DNA from: Methanobacteriota archaeon | GTDB taxonomy: Archaea; Thermoplasmatota; Poseidoniia; Poseidoniales; Thalassarchaeaceae | NCBI GenBank assembly: GCA_016845345.1 | Contig: JAERSV010000004.1 | Span: 2,083-66,082 of the forward strand | Direction: 5' to 3' | DNA length: 64,000 nucleotides | Shown: positions 31,231 to 41,599 of the stretch, piece by piece | How positions within the stretch are numbered: the stretch's first letter is position 1 | Layout of the letters: each line of letters opens with the position of its first letter | Notes under the pieces: model-generated | Told to the model about the DNA's origin: nothing | Database searches by the model: none | What the model saw: the letters and a program-made list of their open reading frames with translations, nothing else | Position numbers and translations under genes: made by a program

Positions 31231-32391
31231 TCAGTCCTTCCACTCGCGGTATTGAATCCACTCTTCTTTGAAGTATTCATCGAGTTGTGCTACATCTTCA
31301 TCGTTAGGTAACTGGTCGTGTAGATATTGCTCCCAAGCCGCGTCATCTCCCTCAAATGGTTCTCCATGTACGGTGGTTCTGATGTCGACAAACTTTCCAA
31401 CACTGCGATGGAACTTATCCGATGGGATGAATAATTTAGGTTGCCCTTCGTGACGACCCTTGTTGATTCTCTCCATCTCTTTTGCGAGTTCATCAAAGTA
31501 GTGCATTCTGCTCTCTTCATTTAGGTGCTCACGGTCCGCAGGAATCCCTGCCTCTCGTTCGTCATATCTACCTTTGATTCCGTAAACATAAGCCCACTGA
31601 GCAGATGTTGATTCGTCAACTCCAAACAAATCAAGTCCAGTTGAGACCCACTTGTTCATGTATTTTTGAAGTAGTGAAATCGGTATTACTCCCTGCTTTA
31701 CAATTCGGCGCAGTCCATTTGCGCCGGTGCCAAGATGGAATGATTCTTCTTTTAGCATCGGACCCATGCTTGCAGCAAGTGGTTTGAAGGAAGATGTACT
31801 CAACATTTTGAGTTGGAATTTTCCATCACGGTCAATGAAGTGAGTGAAGCAGAAGAAATCAAGCCAGTTGTCAATTGGTTCATTGAAAGAACCTAGTAGA
31901 CGAGGGCGGTCTGCTTCACCACGAATTGGATTTGCAGCAGAATTGCGCTCAAGCAATTTTTGTGCTTCACGAATCCCATGTTCTCCAAAATAGTTGCAAA
32001 GGACATAAGCCATTTGCCAACCATGTCGTTGTTCTTCACACATGATTCTGAGGGCTGACTTTCTATCGTACTCAGTTGGTGCGCTGTCAAGCAAATGCCA
32101 TTGCTGTTCAACACTACCAAACTCGGTGTCGCCTTGAACACTAATCATACTGATGATTGCATCACGAACACTTTGTTGTGGGATTTGCATCCTTCGTTCC
32201 CACTTTGGCATTCCTTTGAAATCTCCGAATTCAATTTCATCTCCAGCGCTGTCCCAGTCAAACTTGATATCGAATCTATAGTCACCTAGCCAAGAAGGGT
32301 CAAACCCAATTCGTGTCTGCCATTCTCCAAATTGCTCAACCCAAGCTTGGAAATTGGGTTCGTACTTCTCTACAACTTCTGTCTCACTCAT
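31231..32391 (-). CDS. boxB: Benzoyl-CoA 2,3-epoxidase oxygenase subunit (BoxB-like; PaaA/PaaC ferritin-like di-iron family)
   Basis: VQGDTE..SVEQQ, APTEYD, EEQRH, FTHFIDRDGKFQL, MLKEESFH and QKY.NKW....LDLFG match the BoxB pattern. Confidence 0.82.
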   Translation of the reverse strand: MSETEVVEKYEPNFQAWVEQFGEWQTRIGFDPSWLGDYRFDIKFDWDSAGDEIEFGDFKGMPKWERRMQIPQQSVRDAIISMISVQGDTEFGSVEQQWHLLDSAPTEYDRKSALRIMCEEQRHGWQMAYVLCNYFGEHGIREAQKLLERNSAANPIRGEADRPRLLGSFNEPIDNWLDFFCFTHFIDRDGKFQLKMLSTSSFKPLAASMGPMLKEESFHLGTGANGLRRIVKQGVIPISLLQKYMNKWVSTGLDLFGVDESTSAQWAYVYGIKGRYDEREAGIPADREHLNEESRMHYFDELAKEMERINKGRHEGQPKLFIPSDKFHRSVGKFVDIRTTVHGEPFEGDDAAWEQYLHDQLPNDEDVAQLDEYFKEEWIQYREWKD

Positions 32392-32453
32392 GGTTTTCGC
32401 CTCTCCCCATCCTTTTTAATTCATGCTCAAACTATCCTTTTGACAGATCATCC

Positions 32454-33176
32454 TCAATTTGTATCTTCTTTTGGACTTTGGTGTCTAATACTATCAGCGA
32501 ATTCTTCTATGATATGCTTCTCAATTAAATGAACCATTTCGCAAAGTGTGGACTTTGATATTTCCATTTTTTTTGCTAGATTTGTTAGCGTGATTCGCCT
32601 CGGTGTATCGTAATATCCTTCTAGGACAGCACGGTCAAAAACTTCTCTTTGGCGAACTGTTAACAGCCTTTTATTCGTTGTTTGTCCAAATCCAAGAATT
32701 CGGTGAGTAAATTCTTGGTCTTTCAATTGTTGGACTAATTTTTGTGCGTGTTCTTGGTCTACGATTAAATCCCACTCCACCCATCCATCACGTACTTCGA
32801 AAGGTGTTTTTGGAACTGCTTCTGCCTCCATTAGCGGTCGTAGGAATCCCCCTCCTCCTTTACCAATATGCAAAAGTGCTTCCACGGCTGAATCAAATTC
32901 TTCCATGAAGGTGAATTCTTCAATTGAATCAATCGAGTTCAATGTACTCCTTATTGCGGGTGTATCAATTCCAATTATTTCGGCCATGACATTTCCTCTG
33001 CCTTTGGGTAATGGCATGTGTTCTACCACTCGTAAAATTAAGTGGGGGTGAGAACGTGTGATGATAGCAGCCCAGTGGGTTTCTGGTAGCCTAATTTGAA
33101 TCAATAAACGTTGGGCTGACACAGTTCCTTGGTATTTTTCCTTCATTATTAAGACATCCCATTTCTTATTTTTCAT
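32454..33176 (-). CDS. Bat/HTH_10-family transcription regulator
   Basis: C-terminal LTVRQREV...A...GYYDTPRRITL..LA....ISKST; its start overlaps the upstream Reeler-domain gene. Confidence 0.9.
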   Translation of the reverse strand: MKNKKWDVLIMKEKYQGTVSAQRLLIQIRLPETHWAAIITRSHPHLILRVVEHMPLPKGRGNVMAEIIGIDTPAIRSTLNSIDSIEEFTFMEEFDSAVEALLHIGKGGGGFLRPLMEAEAVPKTPFEVRDGWVEWDLIVDQEHAQKLVQQLKDQEFTHRILGFGQTTNKRLLTVRQREVFDRAVLEGYYDTPRRITLTNLAKKMEISKSTLCEMVHLIEKHIIEEFADSIRHQSPKEDTN

Positions 33177-33858
33177 CCTCTAATCTTTGTAGTACTACGA
33201 TTGCAAGCATCACGACAAATCCGAATAACACATATGGCAAGCTATTATTTTCTTCTCCGCTGTCAGTCCGAAATCCAATCTTGTTATTTTGGCTCGGTGG
33301 TCCGTCAACAGTTATTGTGAATCCATTCCATAGGTCTTGCGTACTCGGGCTAGCATCTCCATCAACTGCATTCCCATAGGTGGTGAAGGTTACCGACCCT
33401 GCATCAGGCGAGGTCCAAGTAAAGTTCCATTCTCGAACATCGTTACCTGCTGTAGTATGGGTTAATTCACCGTTTTCTACTTGGGTAAACGAATCAACAG
33501 GTGTCAATTCTCCTGAACTAGATTTCAGATTGAATCCTCCTTGGTTCTGGCCAGAAAGTTCCCCACCTCCAAGAATTGAAAGTGTCAAGTTGTATGACTC
33601 ACCTGGCGAATAATTCCCTTCAGGAAGTCCGGATAAGGTAATAGTGATACTATCATCAGCTACGCCGCCGCCGTGGCAAATGCAGCCATTATTTACAGTT
33701 GAACCGCTAATCCCATCTGATTCGGCGACAACTCTCGAGCCAGCTAAAAGCGAAAAACACACTATAGTTACGATGGCAATTTTGATTTTCTGTCGGTGAA
33801 TGTTGATTCCCCTAAATGTACGGGGGAGGGCAATAATTGCATCCTTACCCCCGAACAT
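33166..33858 (-). CDS. Membrane-anchored Reeler/choice-of-anchor-V-like protein with CxCH motif
   Basis: Signal peptide, NGCICHG, GGFNL, LTHT, W.F.W.SP, GNAVDG and a C-terminal TM. Start uncertain (ATG 33858 lies inside the operator box). Confidence 0.8.
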   Translation of the reverse strand: MFGGKDAIIALPRTFRGINIHRQKIKIAIVTIVCFSLLAGSRVVAESDGISGSTVNNGCICHGGGVADDSITITLSGLPEGNYSPGESYNLTLSILGGGELSGQNQGGFNLKSSSGELTPVDSFTQVENGELTHTTAGNDVREWNFTWTSPDAGSVTFTTYGNAVDGDASPSTQDLWNGFTITVDGPPSQNNKIGFRTDSGEENNSLPYVLFGFVVMLAIVVLQRLEDEK

Positions 33859-33864
33859 ATTCGG
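33851..33864. promoter_or_regulatory. Palindromic operator box CCGAACATATTCGG
   Basis: One of six related boxes in 33.8-40.5 kb; lies upstream of the Reeler-HTH unit. Confidence 0.8.
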
Positions 33865-33875
33865 GACGAGGGGGG

Positions 33876-34334
33876 TTAACAATGTGAAATATTTCGTTCC
33901 ATTACTTCGGCTAAAATGCAATGATTCTGAACGACCATCCAACCATAATCATGAGCATCTGATAATATTTTTTTAGGAATCTCTACCGCCGGTTCTAACC
34001 AAATAGTGCGAATATCACCCCAGCGTTCAGTCCTTGATGACAAGTCACTTATCACATCATAAATCCACTCAGAATCTAGATGAACCACGACAATTTGCAA
34101 GTCATCATCCACATCTGAAACGGTTTTACAGACCTTCATGCCTAGTAATTCAATATTGTTCTCAGCCATATCTGGATTAATCGGAGTTACATGGAAGCCC
34201 CTTTGAATTAATCCTTTCATATCACCCAATGCGGCAGAGTTTCGATTGAAGTCATGAGCAATAATCGCCACTTGGTTGAATTTCAATGATTGAGTAATTG
34301 ATTCCTCAACATCATTCTTTCTTAATGCGTGCAT
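33876..34334 (-). CDS. CoA-binding domain protein (YccU-like)
   Basis: VAIIA, GFHVTPINP, IWLEP and VVQNHCI. Confidence 0.7.
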   Translation of the reverse strand: MHALRKNDVEESITQSLKFNQVAIIAHDFNRNSAALGDMKGLIQRGFHVTPINPDMAENNIELLGMKVCKTVSDVDDDLQIVVVHLDSEWIYDVISDLSSRTERWGDIRTIWLEPAVEIPKKILSDAHDYGWMVVQNHCILAEVMERNISHC

Positions 34335-34372
34335 GTATAAGCCCCCAAACACATTCCCTAATGCCTGCTTTC

Positions 34373-34386
34373 CCGTACATGTTCAT
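34373..34386. promoter_or_regulatory. Degenerate operator box CCGTACATGTTCAT
   Basis: 39 nt upstream of ATG 34334, matching the spacing of the other copies. Confidence 0.5.
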
Positions 34387-34461
34387 TTTTTCACTTTATT
34401 GTAAGAAATATCTTCTTTGTTGAGTGATTAATTATTTGATTTCAACATATGTATTTAGGAA

Positions 34462-36618
34462 TTATTGTTGAATGACTTCAGGGAGTTCATCAAAGTTATT
34501 TGGTGGCGGGGGTGATGAGGTTGACCATTCAAAAGTAGACCCACCCCAAGGATTATCTCCAGCATCTTTACCATGCTTCATACTTCGAATGAAATTCCAA
34601 AAGAATATTGCTTGGCCGAGGAAAACAACTAACGAACCAATTGTTGACCAAAAATGCTCGTTTGCCCATCCCGTTTCTGAGCCATATGAATAAATTCTAC
34701 GCGGCATATCCCACATCCCAAACAGTGGAATAAAAGTCAAGTTTATGCCTAAGAATGTAAGCCAGAAATGCCACCATCCGAGGGTTCTATCCAACATCTT
34801 TCCAAACATTTTAGGATACCAATAATAGATCCCTCCTAGAGTCATTACAGCAACTGAACCTAATGTGTAGTGAAAGTGAGCAACGATGTAGTATGTGCCT
34901 CGAAGTTGAACGTCCATAGCTACACTTGAGAGGTAAACTCCAGTAACTCCTCCAACGAGGAAAATTCCAATCGCACCCATTACAAAAGTTAAGGGTAATT
35001 TGTCAAACTGAGGTTTTGACTTGTAGAACGTGGCGAGTAGGCTCAGATAAATTAATCCAAATGGGACACTTACAAGTTCTGTTCCAATCGTTTCGAATTT
35101 TCTGAACGTAGGATTAATTCCTGTTATGAACATGTGGTGACCCCAAACTAGGACACTAATTATTGATGCTACTACTAATGCCCAAATTATAATCCTCCGG
35201 CCGTACAATGTTCTCTTCACAAATGTAGGTACAACTTCCATCGCCATTCCTAGCCCCGGCAATAGAACGATGTACACTTCAGGATGTCCAAAGAACCAGA
35301 AGATGTGGAGCCACCAAGTAGTTCCATCAATACTCGGGTCAAAGAAAAGAGTCCCAAATACTCTGTCTCCAACGAGCATTAACACTGCTCCGAGAAGCGC
35401 AGGGAATACTGCTAGCATGAGAATTACTGTAAATAGAATGTTCCAAGAGAACATAGGCATCTGCATCAATTTCATACTGGGTACTCGCATTTGTAAGATT
35501 GTGACCAAGAAATTGATTGTGCTCCCGCTCACTGAAAGAATGAGTAGCACTAATCCTGCGCCGGCTAATGAAATTCCAGCGCCAGGGCTGTATTCAAGAC
35601 TGGTCAGAGGGCTGTAAAAAGTCCAACCCGCATCAGCCGCTCCACCGAAGAAGAATCCTGATGCGGCCACTAGTCCACCTAGCAACATCGTCCAAAATGA
35701 GAATGCATTCAATCTCGGGAAAGCCATATCGCGGGCACCGATTTGCAATGGTACGATGTAATTTGCAAATGCGAATGACATTGGTGAGATAGCGAACAAT
35801 ACCATGACAGCACCGTGCATCGTAACCGCTTCATTGAATAATCCGCCCGTCAAGAATTCGTTATCGGGAACCATCAATTGCAATCGAATTAATACTGATA
35901 AAGCTAGGCCTATTACTGAGAATAGAATAGTTGCCCAAAGGTACAGTAGTCCGATATCCTTGTGATTACATGTTGTTAGCCAATGCATCAATTCCGTTTT
36001 CCCAAAATCGTTCTTCAAGACAAGGGCGAGAATTACCCCTCCGGCCACGGCTAGTATAGCGAAGATGATTATCCACCAAGCAATATTCCCGAAGTCCACT
36101 AGAGTCCCACCACTCGAGTTTACTCCTTGCACCGAATATTCTGCTGTATTCCATGAATCACCTGAAGATTCGTTATTTCCGTCTACCGAGTTTCCTAGAA
36201 TAGTGAATGTGACATCTGCTGTGTCTGTTTCCGGTGCCGTCCATTGTACTTGCCAACTGCGTAAATCATTCCCCAGAGTCGTATGAGTTAAGTCCCCATC
36301 ACTCAATAGTTGGACATTCTCATCGGTTGCAGATAAATTACCTATATTTGCAACGAGATTAAATCCGCCAATATTTTCGCCTGTGGCATCAGGGCCGCCA
36401 CTTATTGAAATCGAAATATTGTAAGTCTGCCCAGCCTTGAATTTATCTGGTAATCCTGTCAGAGTTACTGTCACATCAGCGTCAATCGCGCCATGGCAAA
36501 CACATCCGTTTTTGACAGTATTACCACCAATTCCTTCAGGTTCAGCTACCAGTGTAGGTGCGATGAGTATCATCATCAAAATCGCAATTATGATTCCCGA
36601 GTATTTTTTTTGCATCAA
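34462..36618 (-). CDS. coxA: Haem-copper oxidase subunit I with fused N-terminal Reeler/choice-of-anchor-V-like domain
   Basis: HKDIG, TMHG, DMAFPRLN, GWTFY, FWFFGHPEVY, VWGHHM, AHFHY and MPRR. The first ~200 aa are a signal peptide, a CxCH domain and an extra TM. Confidence 0.95.
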   Translation of the reverse strand: MMQKKYSGIIIAILMMILIAPTLVAEPEGIGGNTVKNGCVCHGAIDADVTVTLTGLPDKFKAGQTYNISISISGGPDATGENIGGFNLVANIGNLSATDENVQLLSDGDLTHTTLGNDLRSWQVQWTAPETDTADVTFTILGNSVDGNNESSGDSWNTAEYSVQGVNSSGGTLVDFGNIAWWIIIFAILAVAGGVILALVLKNDFGKTELMHWLTTCNHKDIGLLYLWATILFSVIGLALSVLIRLQLMVPDNEFLTGGLFNEAVTMHGAVMVLFAISPMSFAFANYIVPLQIGARDMAFPRLNAFSFWTMLLGGLVAASGFFFGGAADAGWTFYSPLTSLEYSPGAGISLAGAGLVLLILSVSGSTINFLVTILQMRVPSMKLMQMPMFSWNILFTVILMLAVFPALLGAVLMLVGDRVFGTLFFDPSIDGTTWWLHIFWFFGHPEVYIVLLPGLGMAMEVVPTFVKRTLYGRRIIIWALVVASIISVLVWGHHMFITGINPTFRKFETIGTELVSVPFGLIYLSLLATFYKSKPQFDKLPLTFVMGAIGIFLVGGVTGVYLSSVAMDVQLRGTYYIVAHFHYTLGSVAVMTLGGIYYWYPKMFGKMLDRTLGWWHFWLTFLGINLTFIPLFGMWDMPRRIYSYGSETGWANEHFWSTIGSLVVFLGQAIFFWNFIRSMKHGKDAGDNPWGGSTFEWSTSSPPPPNNFDELPEVIQQ

Positions 36619-37370
36619 TTAACACCTCCTGCAAGTTTTGCAGAATGCCAAGCATCAAAATCATCTTTTTGAACCACTTCTAACTCGCCAATCATATCGG
36701 CGTGGAATTCTCCACAGAGTTCGAAGCATCGAATAGGGTATTTTCCGGTTTCGTCTGCATTAATCCAGCCAGTATTTGTTCTGCCTGGAATCGCATCAAT
36801 TTTGATACGATGTTCTGGTAAAGCGAATGAGTGGAAGACGTCACCCGTAGTCACTTCTATGACTACAGGAACATCGACAGGAATTACTAATGCTTCTCCA
36901 GTTGCGCTCGAATAATTGATTCCGGAATCATATTCATATGTCCAGTAATATTGGTATCCCGTGACTTTGATCGTGAAAGATTCCTCAGTTGTGTGTTCAC
37001 CGTATTTCTCAAAAAAATCAATTGAATCAAATGTTACATCTGAAAGAACTAGTAAGAACAATGTAATTACGATTGAAATTGCCATTGCAACCTTGTTGTT
37101 CCCTCTCTCAATGGGAACTACACCCATTTCAGGTTGTTCTTCTGTCTCACCTTGAACTGATGTGGTGATAAGCCAAATAAAGTAAAGATATACCCCGCCG
37201 CCGATTAGAACCCCTAGACTCCAATATGTTGTGAAAAGGTGATTATATACTTCAGCGTGTGCACCAGTTCCCCCCAGCCCATTGAACCAGTTGAAGATAG
37301 CAGCGTAAGTCAACATCAAGAGAATTGTAACTCCTATAATTATACCAAATTGTTTCTTATCCGGAATCAT
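36615..37370 (-). CDS. coxB: Haem-copper oxidase subunit II (CuA)
   Basis: GYQYYW, DVFHSF, KIDAIPG and the CuA motif CFELCGEFHADM. Confidence 0.95.
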   Translation of the reverse strand: MIPDKKQFGIIIGVTILLMLTYAAIFNWFNGLGGTGAHAEVYNHLFTTYWSLGVLIGGGVYLYFIWLITTSVQGETEEQPEMGVVPIERGNNKVAMAISIVITLFLLVLSDVTFDSIDFFEKYGEHTTEESFTIKVTGYQYYWTYEYDSGINYSSATGEALVIPVDVPVVIEVTTGDVFHSFALPEHRIKIDAIPGRTNTGWINADETGKYPIRCFELCGEFHADMIGELEVVQKDDFDAWHSAKLAGGVN

Positions 37371-37371
37371 T

Positions 37372-38181
37372 TCAGATCACCTCAACATAGACAATTAAGT
37401 AAAGTAAAATCCAAACAGCATCAACAAAATGCCAGTACCAAGTGATTGCTTGGAAAGAATCGTGCCTCTCTTTCGTAAAATAACCGTGAGAAATTAGTTG
37501 GTGAGCGACTACAAAACAGATTATCCCTACTAGAACGTGAAAGCCATGTAATCCTGTGAGAGCAAAGAAAGCCGTTCCATAGGCGTGGTCTCCCCAGAGG
37601 AATCCGGCGTGAGTGTATTCATAGAGTTGAATTCCTAAGAAACTCAATCCCAATAAAATTGTTGTTCGAAGTAATGTTTTACTCTGTTTCACATTTCCCT
37701 CTTTGAGTGAATGAAGTGCTTTATGGCCTGTAAATCCGGATGCTAAGAGGATGACAGTGTTAAATGTTACAAGTGTCATGTCATGACTGACTCCACTCGC
37801 TGGCCAAGACCCTCCCACTGCATTTTCCCAATTTATTGTGTGCCACTTTGCCCAAAACCAGAAGGCGAAGAAACTCGCGAAAACAATTGTTTCAGTAACG
37901 ATTATCCAAATCATCGCCCAACTTGCGTGCCCCCATTCCCCTGTTGAAAGGGTTGGGCGGAAAGTCCAAAGTGCAATATCCTCCTTCACCCAAGAGAAAA
38001 TCGCGTGCACGGTCAGAGCTAAACCGATAATCAAAAATGGCCAAACCAAAAGACCCGCGAGGGTTAATGCAATTCCGAGGGATAACTCCAACGGAAATAT
38101 GCTGTTGTGGACTTCTCCTAAATCGTGATTCAATCCTGAAATTGTCTTCTCGCCCTCTGCATCTGCTACTGTAGCCCCCAT
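37372..38181 (-). CDS. coxC: Haem-copper oxidase subunit III
   Basis: TETIVFASFF, NTVILLASG, FFALTGLHGFHV and YWHFVD; start MGAT at 38181 with GAAGGTGA SD. Confidence 0.93.
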   Translation of the reverse strand: MGATVADAEGEKTISGLNHDLGEVHNSIFPLELSLGIALTLAGLLVWPFLIIGLALTVHAIFSWVKEDIALWTFRPTLSTGEWGHASWAMIWIIVTETIVFASFFAFWFWAKWHTINWENAVGGSWPASGVSHDMTLVTFNTVILLASGFTGHKALHSLKEGNVKQSKTLLRTTILLGLSFLGIQLYEYTHAGFLWGDHAYGTAFFALTGLHGFHVLVGIICFVVAHQLISHGYFTKERHDSFQAITWYWHFVDAVWILLYLIVYVEVI

Positions 38182-38230
38182 CTTCTCACCTTCATGTTCT
38201 GCGAAGTGTGATTGTGGATTGAGGCGTATC

Positions 38231-38244
38231 CCGAACATGTTGGG
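38231..38244. promoter_or_regulatory. Operator box CCGAACATGTTGGG upstream of coxCBA
   Basis: 50 nt upstream of the coxC start. Confidence 0.75.
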
Positions 38245-38335
38245 AAATTTCCTACACTTGTGTCGAAGATACTGAGTGATTAGTTGGTGTCATAGTTGGG
38301 TAGTCAAATGCAAGGTTTTGTGTCGGGACAAAACT

Positions 38336-38349
38336 CCGAATATGTTCGG
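38336..38349. promoter_or_regulatory. Operator box CCGAATATGTTCGG upstream of the divergent 38392 gene
   Basis: 43 nt upstream of ATG 38392. Confidence 0.8.
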
Positions 38350-38391
38350 TGGTATCTGAATAAACGTCGACCATTTCGATAGGTTTAGTAG

Positions 38392-39000
38392 ATGAATTTG
38401 AAACCAGAGTTGATGTTGCCAGTCATCGTAATCGCGCTCGCCTTTGTATTGGCGATATCTCCAAATATTTTTCTTGAAGGTCAAAATGATTCGGTATCTA
38501 GTATAACGCGCGAAGACATTACAACCGCTCAACTCAATGCGATTGTAGATTTATCTCCTGCCACAATGCCTAGTGATGTGGCAAATGGGGCGACCGCAAT
38601 TAGAGATATTAGTCAAGCCGAATCGGGCGAACTAATTATTAGTGGTTCTTTTGAAGACGAAGTAGAGTTTGGCGATTTCAAATTAATTTCAAAAGGCTCG
38701 CGAGATATCTACATTGGACTACTTGGGATTGATGGCAATTGGTCCTGGATAATATCGGGCGGTGGAGTTGGGTTTGATGATGTTGTGGATATTGAATTAG
38801 GGGACAATAGCATTCAAGTCGTTGGGTGGGGTCACGGCAATCTTTCTTTTGGAGATAGAGAAGTTAGAATGCTCTCAAAGTATGGAAAAGATGCCTGGCA
38901 GACAGATATTTCTCTAACTGGAGAATTGAATGCAGCGTGGCGTATTGACCCAATATTACTTCCTCAAATGGGGTCTTCCCTTTGGTGCGGTTTCCGCTAA
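38392..39000 (+). CDS. Secreted/membrane-anchored hypothetical protein with beta-propeller-like repeats
   Basis: N-terminal TM; G.F...V.FG...L.S.G.RDIY...GNW.W....GG repeat; ends LWCGFR. Confidence 0.7.
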   Translation: MNLKPELMLPVIVIALAFVLAISPNIFLEGQNDSVSSITREDITTAQLNAIVDLSPATMPSDVANGATAIRDISQAESGELIISGSFEDEVEFGDFKLISKGSRDIYIGLLGIDGNWSWIISGGGVGFDDVVDIELGDNSIQVVGWGHGNLSFGDREVRMLSKYGKDAWQTDISLTGELNAAWRIDPILLPQMGSSLWCGFR

Positions 39001-39010
39001 TTAATTATCA

Positions 39011-39384
39011 CTATGTTGATTGATTCACTGAGGAGAGGACTCGCAAAATGTCTCTTTCAGTGATGATTCCAATTAATTCTTCATCGTTTTCATCCATTAC
39101 CGGAAGTCTGCGAATTCTGTTCCTTGACATCAATTGGATTGCTTACTCATGACTTTCTTAATAGGTGTAGACCATAGCCAATCAATATTTTCATCCATTA
39201 AATGTTGATGGAGCAAGCGAAGCAAATCAGACTCTGTGAAAATCCCTGTGAGAAAATCACCTTCGTCGGTCAAAATAATTGATCCTATTTTATTATTTAC
39301 CATGCGGTTAATAATCGTAGAAATTGGGGTAGAATTTTCAGCAGTAATGACATTTTGAGTCATTAATTTTGCGACTGTAATCAT
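39011..39384 (-). pseudogene. CBS-pair gene disrupted by an internal deletion/frameshift
   Basis: The frame stops at VMSKQSN* (39130). The rest of the second CBS domain (AIQLMSRNRIRRLPVMDENDEELIGIITERDILRV...*) continues in another frame to TAG at 39011. Confidence 0.85.
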
Positions 39385-39450
39385 CTGATAACCACCCTAC
39401 TCCATTTCGAAATTAGGTTTATTATTACCACTTATAAATTTAGGTTGTCA

Positions 39451-39873
39451 TTACCACTTCTGGCTGATAACGAGGTCTGGATAGTGTTTCATCATATCAG
39501 TCTGTGAAATAATGCCAACAAGAGTGGTGCCGCTAACTATCGGTATTCGTCGAAAATTGTAATCGGCCATTCGATTAATGACGCCATCAAGAGTTTCTTC
39601 AACTTGGACAGCGATCGCTGGTGCGGACATCCAATCTCTGACGATTTCATTTCCCATTTTTCCATTTTTTTTCGATACAGAACGGCAAATATCTCGTTCT
39701 GTAAGCATTCCAATTAAGTTTCCTTTATCGTCGGTTACGGGTAAGCCTCCGACAGCAAAAAGGTGCATCTTTTCAGCCGCTAAACAGAGTGAATCATCTG
39801 CTTCTACAGTAACAACATCTGGTTTCATACACTCACTTACTTCGTCAGAGGCGGACATTATTATCTTCTGCAT
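39451..39873 (-). CDS. CBS-pair domain protein
   Basis: M.PDVVTV...GGLPV...GMLTERD and WMSAP...RRIPIV...GIISQTD. Confidence 0.9.
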   Translation of the reverse strand: MQKIIMSASDEVSECMKPDVVTVEADDSLCLAAEKMHLFAVGGLPVTDDKGNLIGMLTERDICRSVSKKNGKMGNEIVRDWMSAPAIAVQVEETLDGVINRMADYNFRRIPIVSGTTLVGIISQTDMMKHYPDLVISQKW

Positions 39874-39910
39874 ATTTGACCCCAAGGGTAAGTTCTGATT
39901 GAGACGAACT

Positions 39911-39924
39911 CCGAACATATTCGG
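39911..39924. promoter_or_regulatory. Operator box CCGAACATATTCGG upstream of the CBS genes
   Basis: Identical to the 33851 copy; 38 nt upstream of ATG 39873. Confidence 0.8.
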
Positions 39925-39975
39925 GTTAAGGAATTTTTTTATATATGGCGAGATTTAGGGGATGACAGAATTGAA

Positions 39976-40470
39976 TTATACACGAATTATCGTTACTCCA
40001 AGCCAAAAAACAGTCAGAGATAATATCAAATTAATACGGCCAAAGAGTGTCATTCGACGTCGTAATGCAATTGCTTCGTTAGAATCAGGTTTTTCAACCC
40101 ATGTTGCAATTGCTTTTGGCCCAAGTTTGAAATCATGAATTGCTGCAATGATAAAGATAAGAGCCCCTCCAATCATTTTCCAAGCGATGGTTGAAGCGGG
40201 TTTTTGGGAATGTCTAGAACCTGAAGTGAACGCTTCCCAGCCCGAAATAATATCCGATAGAATAACTCCTGTAATAGCAATAGTAACGAGGCAGACCCAT
40301 CCCAACACTCTGAATTGTTTCCCGACATCATTGAGTATAATGACATACTCATCGCGCGAACGAGTTTTTTTCATGAACGGGACTAATACGAACGCATAGA
40401 ATATCATTGACCCAAGCCATATGGCGGCTGCGGTGAGATGAATGAATGTGAAGATGGGTCAAGACATCAT
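39976..40470 (-). pseudogene. CopD/DUF4149-like membrane protein with an in-frame TGA at codon 4
   Basis: Reads MMS*PIFTFIHLTAAAIWLGSMIFYAFVL...; the conserved first helix (HL.AA.IW.G) lies upstream of the annotated ATG 40407; TGA at 40459-40461. Confidence 0.7.
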
Positions 40471-40506
40471 GATGTCTCGGAGGGAACATGGTCGTTGAAT
40501 CGGTTA

Positions 40507-40520
40507 CCGAACATCTTCGC
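40507..40520. promoter_or_regulatory. Operator box CCGAACATCTTCGC upstream of the CopD-like gene
   Basis: 37 nt upstream of ATG 40470. Confidence 0.7.
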
Positions 40521-41417: not shown

Positions 41418-41599
41418 AGGCTATCGGCCTCGCGACTTGCGCCCAACATATCAATTGTACCCCACTCCCATAGGGAGTGTGGGAAGCAAGCAAATGGATT
41501 CAATTATTATTAGAAAAAGCCAATTTGAGTCTGAGTACTCCTTTACTATCCGCATTACTCAAGGGTGAGGGGCTTGTCGCAGTAGCCGGAGAGCGGTGT

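Follow-up and report, generated by a model that had tools for sequence, protein, structure and literature searches.

The locus at positions 32454-40520 of the window, which is the whole 64,000-nucleotide stretch of contig JAERSV010000004.1 analysed here, raises the question of which protein recognizes the six palindromic boxes in front of its genes, whether binding turns these genes on or off, and which signal is answered. The stretch comes from an archaeon of the family Thalassarchaeaceae (order Poseidoniales), the genome of which (G000, assembly GCA_016845345.1) consists of 91 contigs with a total length of 2,081,625 bp and is 86% complete. An earlier sequence-only reading of the window had proposed a self-contained, oxygen-responsive regulon with a cognate, autoregulated regulator of the HTH_10 helix-turn-helix (HTH) family. 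It is likely that the boxes are operators of the HTH_10 protein encoded at 32454-33176 (reverse strand) and that this protein is the activator of the six units behind them. Of the candidate binders, this protein has the strongest case, and it is probably autoregulated through the box before its own gene pair.

Palindromic boxes and their standing in the genome

Five of the six boxes follow the 14-bp palindrome CCGAAYATRTTCGG, which was identified by a pattern scan without mismatch at 33851, 38336, and 39911, and with one mismatch at 38231 and 40507. The boxes were scored using a weight matrix derived from 26 sites in four related genomes, none of the sites being from G000. Box 1 (33851-33864, CCGAACATATTCGG, 26.3 bits, genome rank 1) is located in front of a gene pair encoding a choice-of-anchor V (anchor-V) protein and the regulator. 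Box 3 (38231-38244, CCGAACATGTTGGG, 18.3 bits) ends 49 nt upstream of coxC, Box 4 (38336-38349, CCGAATATGTTCGG, 24.1 bits) 42 nt upstream of the gene at 38392, Box 5 (39911-39924, CCGAACATATTCGG, 24.6 bits) 37 nt upstream of a CBS gene, and Box 6 (40507-40520, CCGAACATCTTCGC, 16.4 bits) 36 nt upstream of the start of a CopD-like gene. The degenerate Box 2 (34373-34386, CCGTACATGTTCAT, 11.5 bits, rank 21) ends 38 nt upstream of a CoA-binding gene. The sequence-only reading had listed these six sites, five of them 37-50 nt upstream of a likely start and the sixth before the regulator unit with an uncertain start, and the sites hold, with five strong boxes, the degenerate one at 34373, and box ends located 36-49 nt before the starts.

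The exact sequence CGAAYATRTTCG occurs three times in the 2,081,625 bp of G000, always at this locus, and three of the five copies of CCGAA-N4-TTCGG are also located here. The five strong boxes occupy ranks 1-5 in the genome (26.3, 24.6, 24.1, 18.3, and 16.4 bits), and the top five matrix hits of 2.08 Mb are thus confined to 6.7 kb. The regulon is self-contained in G000, as had been proposed. All five window matches with at most one mismatch lie within 33851-40520, in agreement with the earlier impression that the box does not recur elsewhere in the window. The four matrix hits above 18 bits in G000 are an unexceptional count in itself, compared to zero to three in five shuffled sequences, so the signal resides in the scores and the clustering. 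The loose pattern, with up to two mismatches, is found 28 times in the window and 22.4 ± 4.9 times in shuffled sequences, which is no enrichment. Of the seven next-best matrix hits that were examined, four are inside long open reading frames (ORFs) and three near ORF starts (C29:60534, C59:41433, and C71:4973).

Box 2 alone scores at noise level. It was accepted because the orthologous promoters of the relatives G020 and G006 have better boxes, CAGAATATGTTCGG and TAGAACATGTTCGG, at equal distance from the start (38 and 36 nt, respectively). An origin of the boxes by chance or from a generic repeat is ruled out by the clustering of the five best sites within 6.7 kb together with their positional conservation in relatives. 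Each box contains an ATG, which in three cases opens the mechanically listed ORF. The frame of this ATG ends after 5 codons in the box at 38336 and after 15 codons in that at 40507. All six boxes are upstream of the proposed starts, and three overlap the 5' ends of listed ORFs. A conserved leader peptide (MFG...) was considered and ruled out, the flanks being conserved as DNA and not as peptide. The YTCAAT-like element that the sequence-only reading had noticed after several boxes was recovered, as a YTCAAY-like pentamer about 8 nt past the box, at three to four sites.

The HTH_10 regulator and the adjacent box in three lineages

The regulator gene is listed as an ORF of 240 amino acids, and comparison with relatives makes 33146 (MKEK, as in their proteins) its likely start. 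The HTH_10 domain (PF04967) is formed by residues 172-224 (57.4 bits; cut-off 23.1), and this part of the protein structurally matches LuxR/sigma-4-like HTH domains with Z-scores of 6-7.5. Residues 1-171 have no Pfam match, and so contain neither a PAS nor a GAF domain. In the predicted structure, which has a mean predicted local distance difference test (pLDDT) value of 84.9, residues 22-165 form beta-alpha-beta ACT-like repeats. The solved structure most similar to it is that of Ta1207, an uncharacterised protein from Thermoplasma (Z 10.3 over 140 residues, root-mean-square deviation (rmsd) 3.4 Å). Ta1207 was also the only Foldseek match with usable overlap, matches to the lid of DapE having an rmsd of about 15 Å. 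ACT-like domains are matched with Z-scores of 5-6, which is inside the range of common arrangements, and a sequence search against solved structures gave no match at E < 0.26. The single cysteine of the regulator, already counted in the earlier reading, is residue 212 within the HTH part. No cysteine column is conserved among 32 aligned relatives, nor is any histidine or methionine conserved family-wide in that alignment; His34, His53, and Met54 are kept in Poseidoniales only. Nothing in the model points to an Fe-S cluster or haem bound in the sensor.

The homodimer model of the regulator reached a score of 0.63, compared to 0.27 for the best of three controls. Of 30 proteins whose solved structure is a pair of one chain, 20 attain the mark used for homodimers, and of 23 whose solved structure is a single chain, 1 does. 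At least 88% of the contacts agree between the runs, and the partner pLDDT is at least 79. The predicted homodimer fits the palindromic site. G000 encodes three HTH_10 proteins, the window regulator and two paralogues.

The search for orthologues covered 41 genomes: 21 of the genus (G000 counted), four of other genera of the family, two of f2, and 14 of the sister family f3. Full-length orthologues of the regulator are present in five of the 21 genus genomes (G000, G002, G004, G006, and G020), in none of the four from the other genera, in one of the two from f2, and in 13 of the 14 from f3. The exact CGAAYATRTTCG is found three to six times in each of the five regulator-bearing genus genomes and zero to two times in the other 16. 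With up to two mismatches, the 14-mer was counted 45, 14, 34, and 24 times, against 6, 8, 9, and 9 occurrences of a reversed-pattern control. The two HTH_10 paralogues of G000 have counterparts in most box-poor genomes, which makes them poor candidates for the binder.

The boxes are kept at orthologous loci in G002, G004, G006, and G020. All four have a box before the anchor-V/regulator pair, whereas the other window units have theirs in some of them: the CoA-binding gene in G006 and G020, the CopD-like gene in G002, G004, and G006 (at 36-37 nt, with a conserved TTCAAC after the box), and the CBS genes in G002. The homologue of the gene at 38392 is preceded by a box in G004 and by a two-mismatch box in G002. 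In front of coxC, G002 has a two-mismatch box and G004 the gene-proximal half only; in the alignment this half of Box 3, ATGTTCGGG, is invariant in G000, G002, and G004.

In f3, where the orthologues are 41-48% identical to the window regulator (13 of 14 genomes), an exact box is positioned right after the stop codon of the regulator at 12 of 13 loci, the thirteenth reading N there. A second box is located 14 bp upstream at 10 of the 12. The box is followed by a clear TATA box (CAATAAGG or GTATAAGG) and, about 35 nt after the box end, by the ATG of a BoxB-like gene. Where f3 has these tandem boxes, the BoxB-like gene of G000 has only a degenerate remnant (32417-32430), followed by TTAAAAAGG. 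Thirteen exact 12-mers were examined outside the genus, eight in f3 and five in f1 and f2. The eight other exact 12-mers of f3 are all inside ORFs, one of which is only 76 amino acids long, so that in f3 the regulator seems to act locally and on one target. In the f2 genome G025, a perfect box (L076 1534-1547) is located 6 nt before an ATG, with an HTH_10 paralogue next door; the N-terminus of the ORF that begins there looks like a DtxR-type metal regulator.

A protein search identified distant homologues of the regulator in Halobacteria, 69 of 81 sampled genomes having one at E ≤ 1e-20. At all six full-length loci examined, an exact box precedes the ATG of the regulator in the same position of the locus; the distance from the end of the 14-mer to the ATG, counted at L087 only, is 39 nt. 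Four of these genomes (2.1-5.5 Mb) contain two to three exact 12-mers each, compared to none for the control. Among the 30 best haloarchaeal loci, which partly overlap the six and come from related genomes that are not independent, 25 have a box, with one mismatch at most, in the 200 nt before the regulator gene, at a distance of about 40-45 nt. The haloarchaeal 12-mer mostly begins at -50 to -58. At L107, L109, L110, L114, L117, L118, and other haloarchaeal loci, two boxes are spaced about 34-35 bp apart, at approximately -55 and -20 from the ATG; this arrangement suggests that the distal site activates and the proximal one self-limits.

On the plasmids pHGLR1 of Haloferax gibbonsii and pHBOR02 of Halogeometricum borinquense, the homologues are located amid nosZ, nirK, nor, DUF2249, and halocyanin genes, and about 14.6 kb of each plasmid contains four and seven boxes, respectively. 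The window regulator is 30% identical to the pHBOR02 regulator over 217 amino acids (E 1e-28, window residues 23-230) and 33% identical to a Natrinema homologue over 208 amino acids (E 8e-32). The full-length homology to the short HTH_10 regulators of denitrification clusters includes the N-terminal sensor domain, and a CGAAYATRTTCG box before the own unit is common to the window regulator (33851) and 25 of the 30 haloarchaeal loci. On pHmuk01 of Halomicrobium mukohataei, the homologue is split in two, and there is one box, with one mismatch, in 14.7 kb. The neighbours of haloarchaeal homologues include globin and Usp genes. In Halorutilales (L092 5550-5909), the homologue is divergent from a truncated globin gene, and a second box of that locus is located 39 nt before a 395-residue ORF of no family.

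The Haloferax motif named in the sequence-only reading is real: the nirK, nor, and nosZ promoters of H. mediterranei are reported to share CGAAYATDKTYG (PMC10062603). According to a transcriptome sequencing study, a nirK-nor cluster of 12.5 kb contains the motif eight times, along with a short bacterio-opsin-activator-like gene, and the binder of the motif in haloarchaea is undisclosed (PMC11218638). The reported catalogue for H. mediterranei comprises 82 motif-bearing promoters. The core of the motif (CGAACATGTTCG, CGAATATGTTCG) is identical in the window boxes, the copies are clustered in both systems (eight in 12.5 kb as reported there, six in 6.7 kb here), and both clusters encode a short HTH_10 regulator without PAS or GAF. 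The cluster regulators of H. gibbonsii and Halogeometricum align end to end with the window protein and have a box before their own start. Judged by protein and DNA site, the window system is homologous to that of the haloarchaeal denitrification clusters. The short bacterio-opsin-activator-like regulator E6P09_00735 is reported as the candidate binder in H. mediterranei (PMC10062603, PMC11218638), and its membership in the subfamily of the window regulator is suggested by the neighbouring species. The two systems differ in that the window organism, a marine planktonic archaeon, belongs to another phylum and does not denitrify, and that neither the window targets (aa3-type oxidase, CBS, CoA-binding, and CopD-like proteins) nor those of its relatives, including benzoyl-CoA-reductase-like and tryptophanase-like proteins, contain an N-oxide reductase. 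The distance between motif and ATG is 36-50 nt in the window, compared to a reported 66-79 nt in H. mediterranei.

In bacteria, regulators of the FNR/CRP type control aerobic and anaerobic respiration as well as benzoyl-CoA pathways. The window system resembles them, by analogy only, in the predicted dimeric regulator, the 5-N4-5 palindrome, and the combination of alternative oxidases with oxygen-sensitive aromatic pathways, but differs in its unrelated fold, lack of an Fe-S cluster motif, and archaeal promoter architecture. Bat of Halobacterium salinarum likewise has a C-terminal HTH_10 domain and is reported to be linked to regulation at low oxygen (PMC11218638); it differs from the window protein, a 240-residue polypeptide with an ACT-like N-terminal part that has no Pfam match, in possessing PAS and GAF domains. 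The sequence-only reading had connected the Haloferax motif to the regulator NarO, described from Haloferax volcanii (Hattori et al. 2016). The motif part of this link stands, and the relevance of NarO itself is doubtful: H. mediterranei reportedly contains the motif but lacks NarO homologues (PMC10062603). NarO is similarly of the HTH_10 type, without PAS or GAF, and linked to genes for anaerobic respiration, and papers citing it describe it as a putative oxygen sensor and activator (PMC10062603, PMC11218638, PMC7188791). The nearest relatives of the window regulator are probably the short HTH_10 regulators of denitrification clusters rather than NarO. NarO reportedly has a conserved N-terminal set of cysteines, in contrast to the one cysteine (residue 212) of the window regulator and the lack of any family-conserved one.

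Genes of the locus and of its relatives

The anchor-V protein (33166-33801, reverse strand) is assigned by NCBIfam NF041895 (101 bits; cut-off 42) and combines a signal or transmembrane segment at its N-terminus with a transmembrane segment at its C-terminus. The label Reeler, given to it previously, is not confirmed, as the protein matches no Pfam family at E ≤ 0.01, Reeler (PF02014) included. The gene probably starts with the ATT at 33801, 49 nt from the end of Box 1, and is directly upstream of the regulator gene, with which it is probably co-transcribed. The leader (33801-33850, reverse strand) contains a conserved hairpin of a C-run and a G-run, the 3' arm of which resembles a ribosome-binding site, and the frame apparently opens at ATT in four of five genomes (window, L034, L035, L036, and L037). 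The hairpin and the ATT may constitute a translational control element. A C-x-C-H motif is present in the free-standing anchor-V protein.

The CoA-binding protein (CoA_binding_2 in Pfam; 33876-34334, reverse strand) starts with ATG CAC at 34334, as conserved in G006 and G020. The operon coxCBA, which follows Box 3 on the reverse strand, encodes subunits I, II, and III of an A-type haem-copper oxidase together, as identified by Pfam: COX3 (37372-38183; 126 bits; likely ATG at 38181-38183, preceded by GGTGA), COX2 (36615-37370; 69 bits), and COX1 (34462-36618; 417 bits for residues 221-663). Residues 1-220 of COX1 form an N-terminal extension of about 220 residues that is homologous to the anchor-V protein (41-50% identity), and the housekeeping COX1 of the genomes searched aligns across the same extension. 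Another COX1, encoded on contig C2 of G000, has counterparts in all 41 genomes, which are 36-41% identical to the window COX1. Orthologues of the window COX1 itself, with 80-84% identity, are limited to G002 and G004 among the 41. The window operon is therefore an accessory second A-type oxidase.

The gene at 38392-39000 (forward strand), divergent from coxC, encodes a 202-residue membrane-anchored protein of no known family, without Pfam or NCBIfam hit; its homologues adjoin the second cox operon in G002 and G004. Pfam identifies a single-CBS protein (39130-39384, reverse strand) and a CBS-pair protein (39451-39875, reverse strand; likely ATG at 39873-39875). The CopD/DUF4149-like membrane protein (39976-40472, reverse strand) is a weak Pfam match (CopD 31.5 bits; cut-off 32.1). 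Its start, ATGATG at 40470, is followed at the fourth codon by an in-frame TGA (40459-40461; M M S stop), where G002, G004, and G006 have TGG (Trp), and past the TGA the frame continues as a normal transmembrane helix. The TGA could be a nonsense mutation or an assembly error, or translation could restart at the ATG at 40407. Apart from the HTH_10 regulator, Pfam searches identified no DNA-binding protein in the G000 island.

Downstream of the regulator, the gene for a BoxB-like di-iron protein (31231-32391, reverse strand) matches NCBIfam TIGR03225 with 222.5 bits and so misses the cut-off of 499.1 for BoxB (benzoyl-CoA 2,3-epoxidase) equivalogs; the protein, which also matches Pfam PaaA_PaaC with 34.7 bits, is thus BoxB-like only. 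The gene is present in 39 of the 41 genomes, most of them without the regulator, and its presence does not therefore depend on the regulator. The gene with the lowest coordinates at the locus encodes a 207-residue protein (reverse strand) of no Pfam or NCBIfam family. On the high-coordinate side, the CopD-like gene is followed by those of an enoyl-CoA hydratase (reverse strand) and a thiolase (forward strand), both identified by Pfam and NCBIfam; the thiolase gene is the last of the locus. Between them is a degenerate box remnant (41442-41455, CCCAACATATCAAT), at a position where relatives have a full box and a reductase-like operon.

This operon, which encodes a four-subunit benzoyl-CoA-reductase-like enzyme, is preceded by a box in G002, G006, and G020, and is cut by a contig end in G004. 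It comprises two HGD-D subunits, two BcrAD ATPase subunits, and an 84-residue protein; the scores of the subunits are all under the NCBIfam equivalog cut-offs. The enzyme resembles class I, and its genes are followed by those of a hydratase, a Zn-dehydrogenase, and a hydratase (L034 3796-11896 in G020; L055 in G006; L057 in G002). From its gene content, the operon would give a group that is regarded as aerobic an aromatic pathway of the anaerobic type. Subunit C is confined to 4 of the 41 genomes (G002, G004, G006, and G020). Its gene opens with the gene-proximal half-box ATGTTCGGG, which is downstream of the full box by about 90 nt in G002 (L057, position ~8600) and 70 nt in G006 (L055, position ~7580).

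Boxes are also located before a hydratase/dehydrogenase unit in G002, G004, G006, and G020, a tryptophanase/tyrosine-phenol-lyase-like gene in G004, G006, and G020, an AbrB-domain protein gene in G006 and G020, an MFS transporter gene in G006, FTR1 in G020, and FeoA in G002. A tblastn search of the G000 assembly, which is 86% complete, did not find the reductase-like, lyase-like, transporter, and other extra targets. The alternative respiratory module that the sequence-only reading had proposed is borne out by the second oxidase, and is too narrow for the relatives, whose targets indicate a predicted regulon wider than respiration.

Sign of regulation, signal, and meaning for Marine Group II

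We infer that the HTH_10 protein, carrying a tandem ACT-like sensor domain, probably binds the 14-bp palindrome as a homodimer. Bound beside the TATA box and the B recognition element (BRE), it would most likely recruit the basal transcription machinery and so activate transcription. Its own operon, consisting of the anchor-V and regulator genes, would be switched on in positive autoregulation, and the CoA-binding protein, the second aa3-type oxidase coxCBA, the membrane protein encoded at 38392, the two CBS proteins, and the CopD-like protein would be co-activated.

The promoter geometry agrees with activation. In 14 promoters without a ribosome-binding site from five genomes (CopD-like 4, tryptophanase-like 3, CoA-binding 3, AbrB-like 2, FeoA 1, and CBS 1), the box ends 36-38 nt before the ATG, and in promoters with a ribosome-binding site it ends 47-52 nt before it. 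Many gene starts in G000 have a ribosome-binding site at -12 to -6, and there is a small TATA signal at -26 to -29. At starts without a ribosome-binding site 36-38 nt past the box, the box abuts the TATA region, which is the geometry of an activator; if such transcripts are leaderless, the box would span approximately -50 to -37, against the BRE/TATA region.

Several observations weigh against this interpretation. The TATA-like element is weak in promoters of the genus (A+T of 0.60 at +3 to +14 versus 0.59 upstream), and the activator geometry leans on the f3 promoters and on assumed leaderless transcripts, while many G000 genes use a ribosome-binding site. Regulator and targets are inherited jointly as one island within the genus, so their co-occurrence there cannot single out the binder, and the island also contains a Fur-family gene in G002 and G006 and an AbrB-domain protein in G006 and G020. 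Five of the 30 haloarchaeal loci have no box, and at many haloarchaeal promoters a second box occupies -17 to -23, from where repression would be expected. The sensor has no cysteine cluster or other obvious redox cofactor site, both oxidases of G000 are A-type, with no mark of high affinity on the second, and nirK and nor of H. mediterranei reportedly require NO and not hypoxia alone (PMC7188791).

The inheritance of the island as a whole leaves a slim chance that the boxes are bound by some other transcription factor, with the HTH_10 gene as a mere neighbour, the more so since the pairing of HTH_10 protein and box is deduced and the binder of the haloarchaeal motif is likewise stated to be undisclosed (PMC11218638). 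However, the box adjoins the regulator gene in each of three lineages whose loci have nothing else in common, it is there the only or nearly the only good site of the genome in f3 and in four haloarchaeal genomes, and the G000 island encodes no other DNA-binding protein. It is considerably less improbable, yet still distinctly unlikely, that the boxes are real operators at which the protein mainly represses, blocking TBP/TFB or the RNA polymerase until the signal arrives. With leaders of 12-20 nt, for which the GGTGA or AGGT before coxC and the gene at 38392 would allow, the box would cover the BRE/TATA region; the frequent second box of the haloarchaeal autoregulatory promoters suggests that the protein can also repress, and NarO is reported as both activator and repressor (PMC10062603). 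Mutations of the motif, however, are reported to lower, not raise, the anoxic activity of nos and nor promoter reporters in H. mediterranei (PMC10062603), the f3 promoters have a clear TATA box after the box and an ATG 35 nt past its end, and a position of the box upstream of TATA agrees with the 36-38-nt spacing in the 14 promoters that lack a ribosome-binding site. This published mutagenesis, together with the position of the box, favours activation by the HTH_10 protein.

For the signal, the anoxia-activated haloarchaeal promoters, the globin and Usp neighbours, and the list of targets favour low oxygen, or else a redox or NO cue correlated with it, which we put forward tentatively. The oxygen response claimed in the sequence-only reading accordingly keeps its support from analogy, and finds none in the ACT-like sensor without a cysteine cluster. 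The acyl-CoA and aromatic targets favour a metabolite signal instead: it might be a pathway regulator that senses a substrate or intermediate in the breakdown of aromatic compounds or acyl-CoAs (for instance, an aryl-CoA or aromatic amino acid), with the oxidase as an add-on. The oldest conserved target is the BoxB-like di-iron protein, boxes in the four relatives precede the reductase-like operon and the hydratase/dehydrogenase, tryptophanase-like, MFS, and CoA-binding genes, the sensor fold is like that of amino-acid-binding ACT domains (prephenate dehydratase, Z 5.8), and the locus is flanked by the enoyl-CoA hydratase and thiolase genes. We nevertheless consider it unlikely, since the haloarchaeal homologues are found in denitrification, globin, and Usp contexts without aromatic genes, the reductase-like, lyase-like, and transporter genes were not found in the incomplete G000 assembly, the BoxB-like gene mostly occurs without the regulator, and the ACT-like Z-scores of 5-6 are those of common arrangements. 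The iron and copper genes favour a metal signal, by which the regulator would coordinate metal-rich enzymes with metal uptake in answer to iron or copper status. Boxes precede FTR1 in G020, FeoA in G002, and the CopD-like gene in four genomes; the targets include a copper/haem oxidase and an Fe-S-rich reductase-like enzyme; the island has a Fur-family gene in G002 and G006; the ORF 6 nt past the box in G025 has the DtxR-like N-terminus; and the NikR metal-binding domain is among the fold matches (Z 5.5). Dependence on metals is improbable all the same, as no histidine, cysteine, or methionine is conserved family-wide (His34, His53, and Met54 being kept in Poseidoniales only), the island has a Fur-type regulator of its own, the haloarchaeal motif is reported to respond to anoxia in reporters (PMC10062603), and the metal-transport targets are each found in one genome only.

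Systems of this kind are known, but the presence of one in Poseidoniales, and its regulon, appear to be undescribed. Our literature search, which covered few subscription journals, found neither the motif nor the regulator linked to Marine Group II or Poseidoniales, and the sequence-only reading had likewise known of no such description in Marine Group II. For these uncultured archaea, in which the control of transcription is essentially uncharted, the locus provides a 14-bp site, a candidate protein, and a short list of targets. The location of the box beside one short HTH_10 subfamily in three lineages suggests that the haloarchaeal motif is bound by members of this subfamily. The spare oxidase, together with the reductase-like enzyme of oxygen-sensitive type in the relatives, hints that some archaea of the surface ocean prepare for low-oxygen microhabitats. 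A bolder and more doubtful proposition than the low-oxygen cue as such is that one regulator-operator pair, ancestral to Halobacteria and Poseidoniales or exchanged between them, is the low-oxygen master switch in both. If this is true, the comparison would also identify the protein, long sought, that binds the denitrification motif of haloarchaea. Marine Group II would swap in a second oxidase at low oxygen, and some species would also turn on an oxygen-sensitive pathway of the benzoyl-CoA-reductase type, a tryptophanase-like lyase, and iron uptake, so that archaea regarded as aerobic would be programmed for life under micro-oxic or anoxic conditions, such as those within particles or oxygen-minimum zones.

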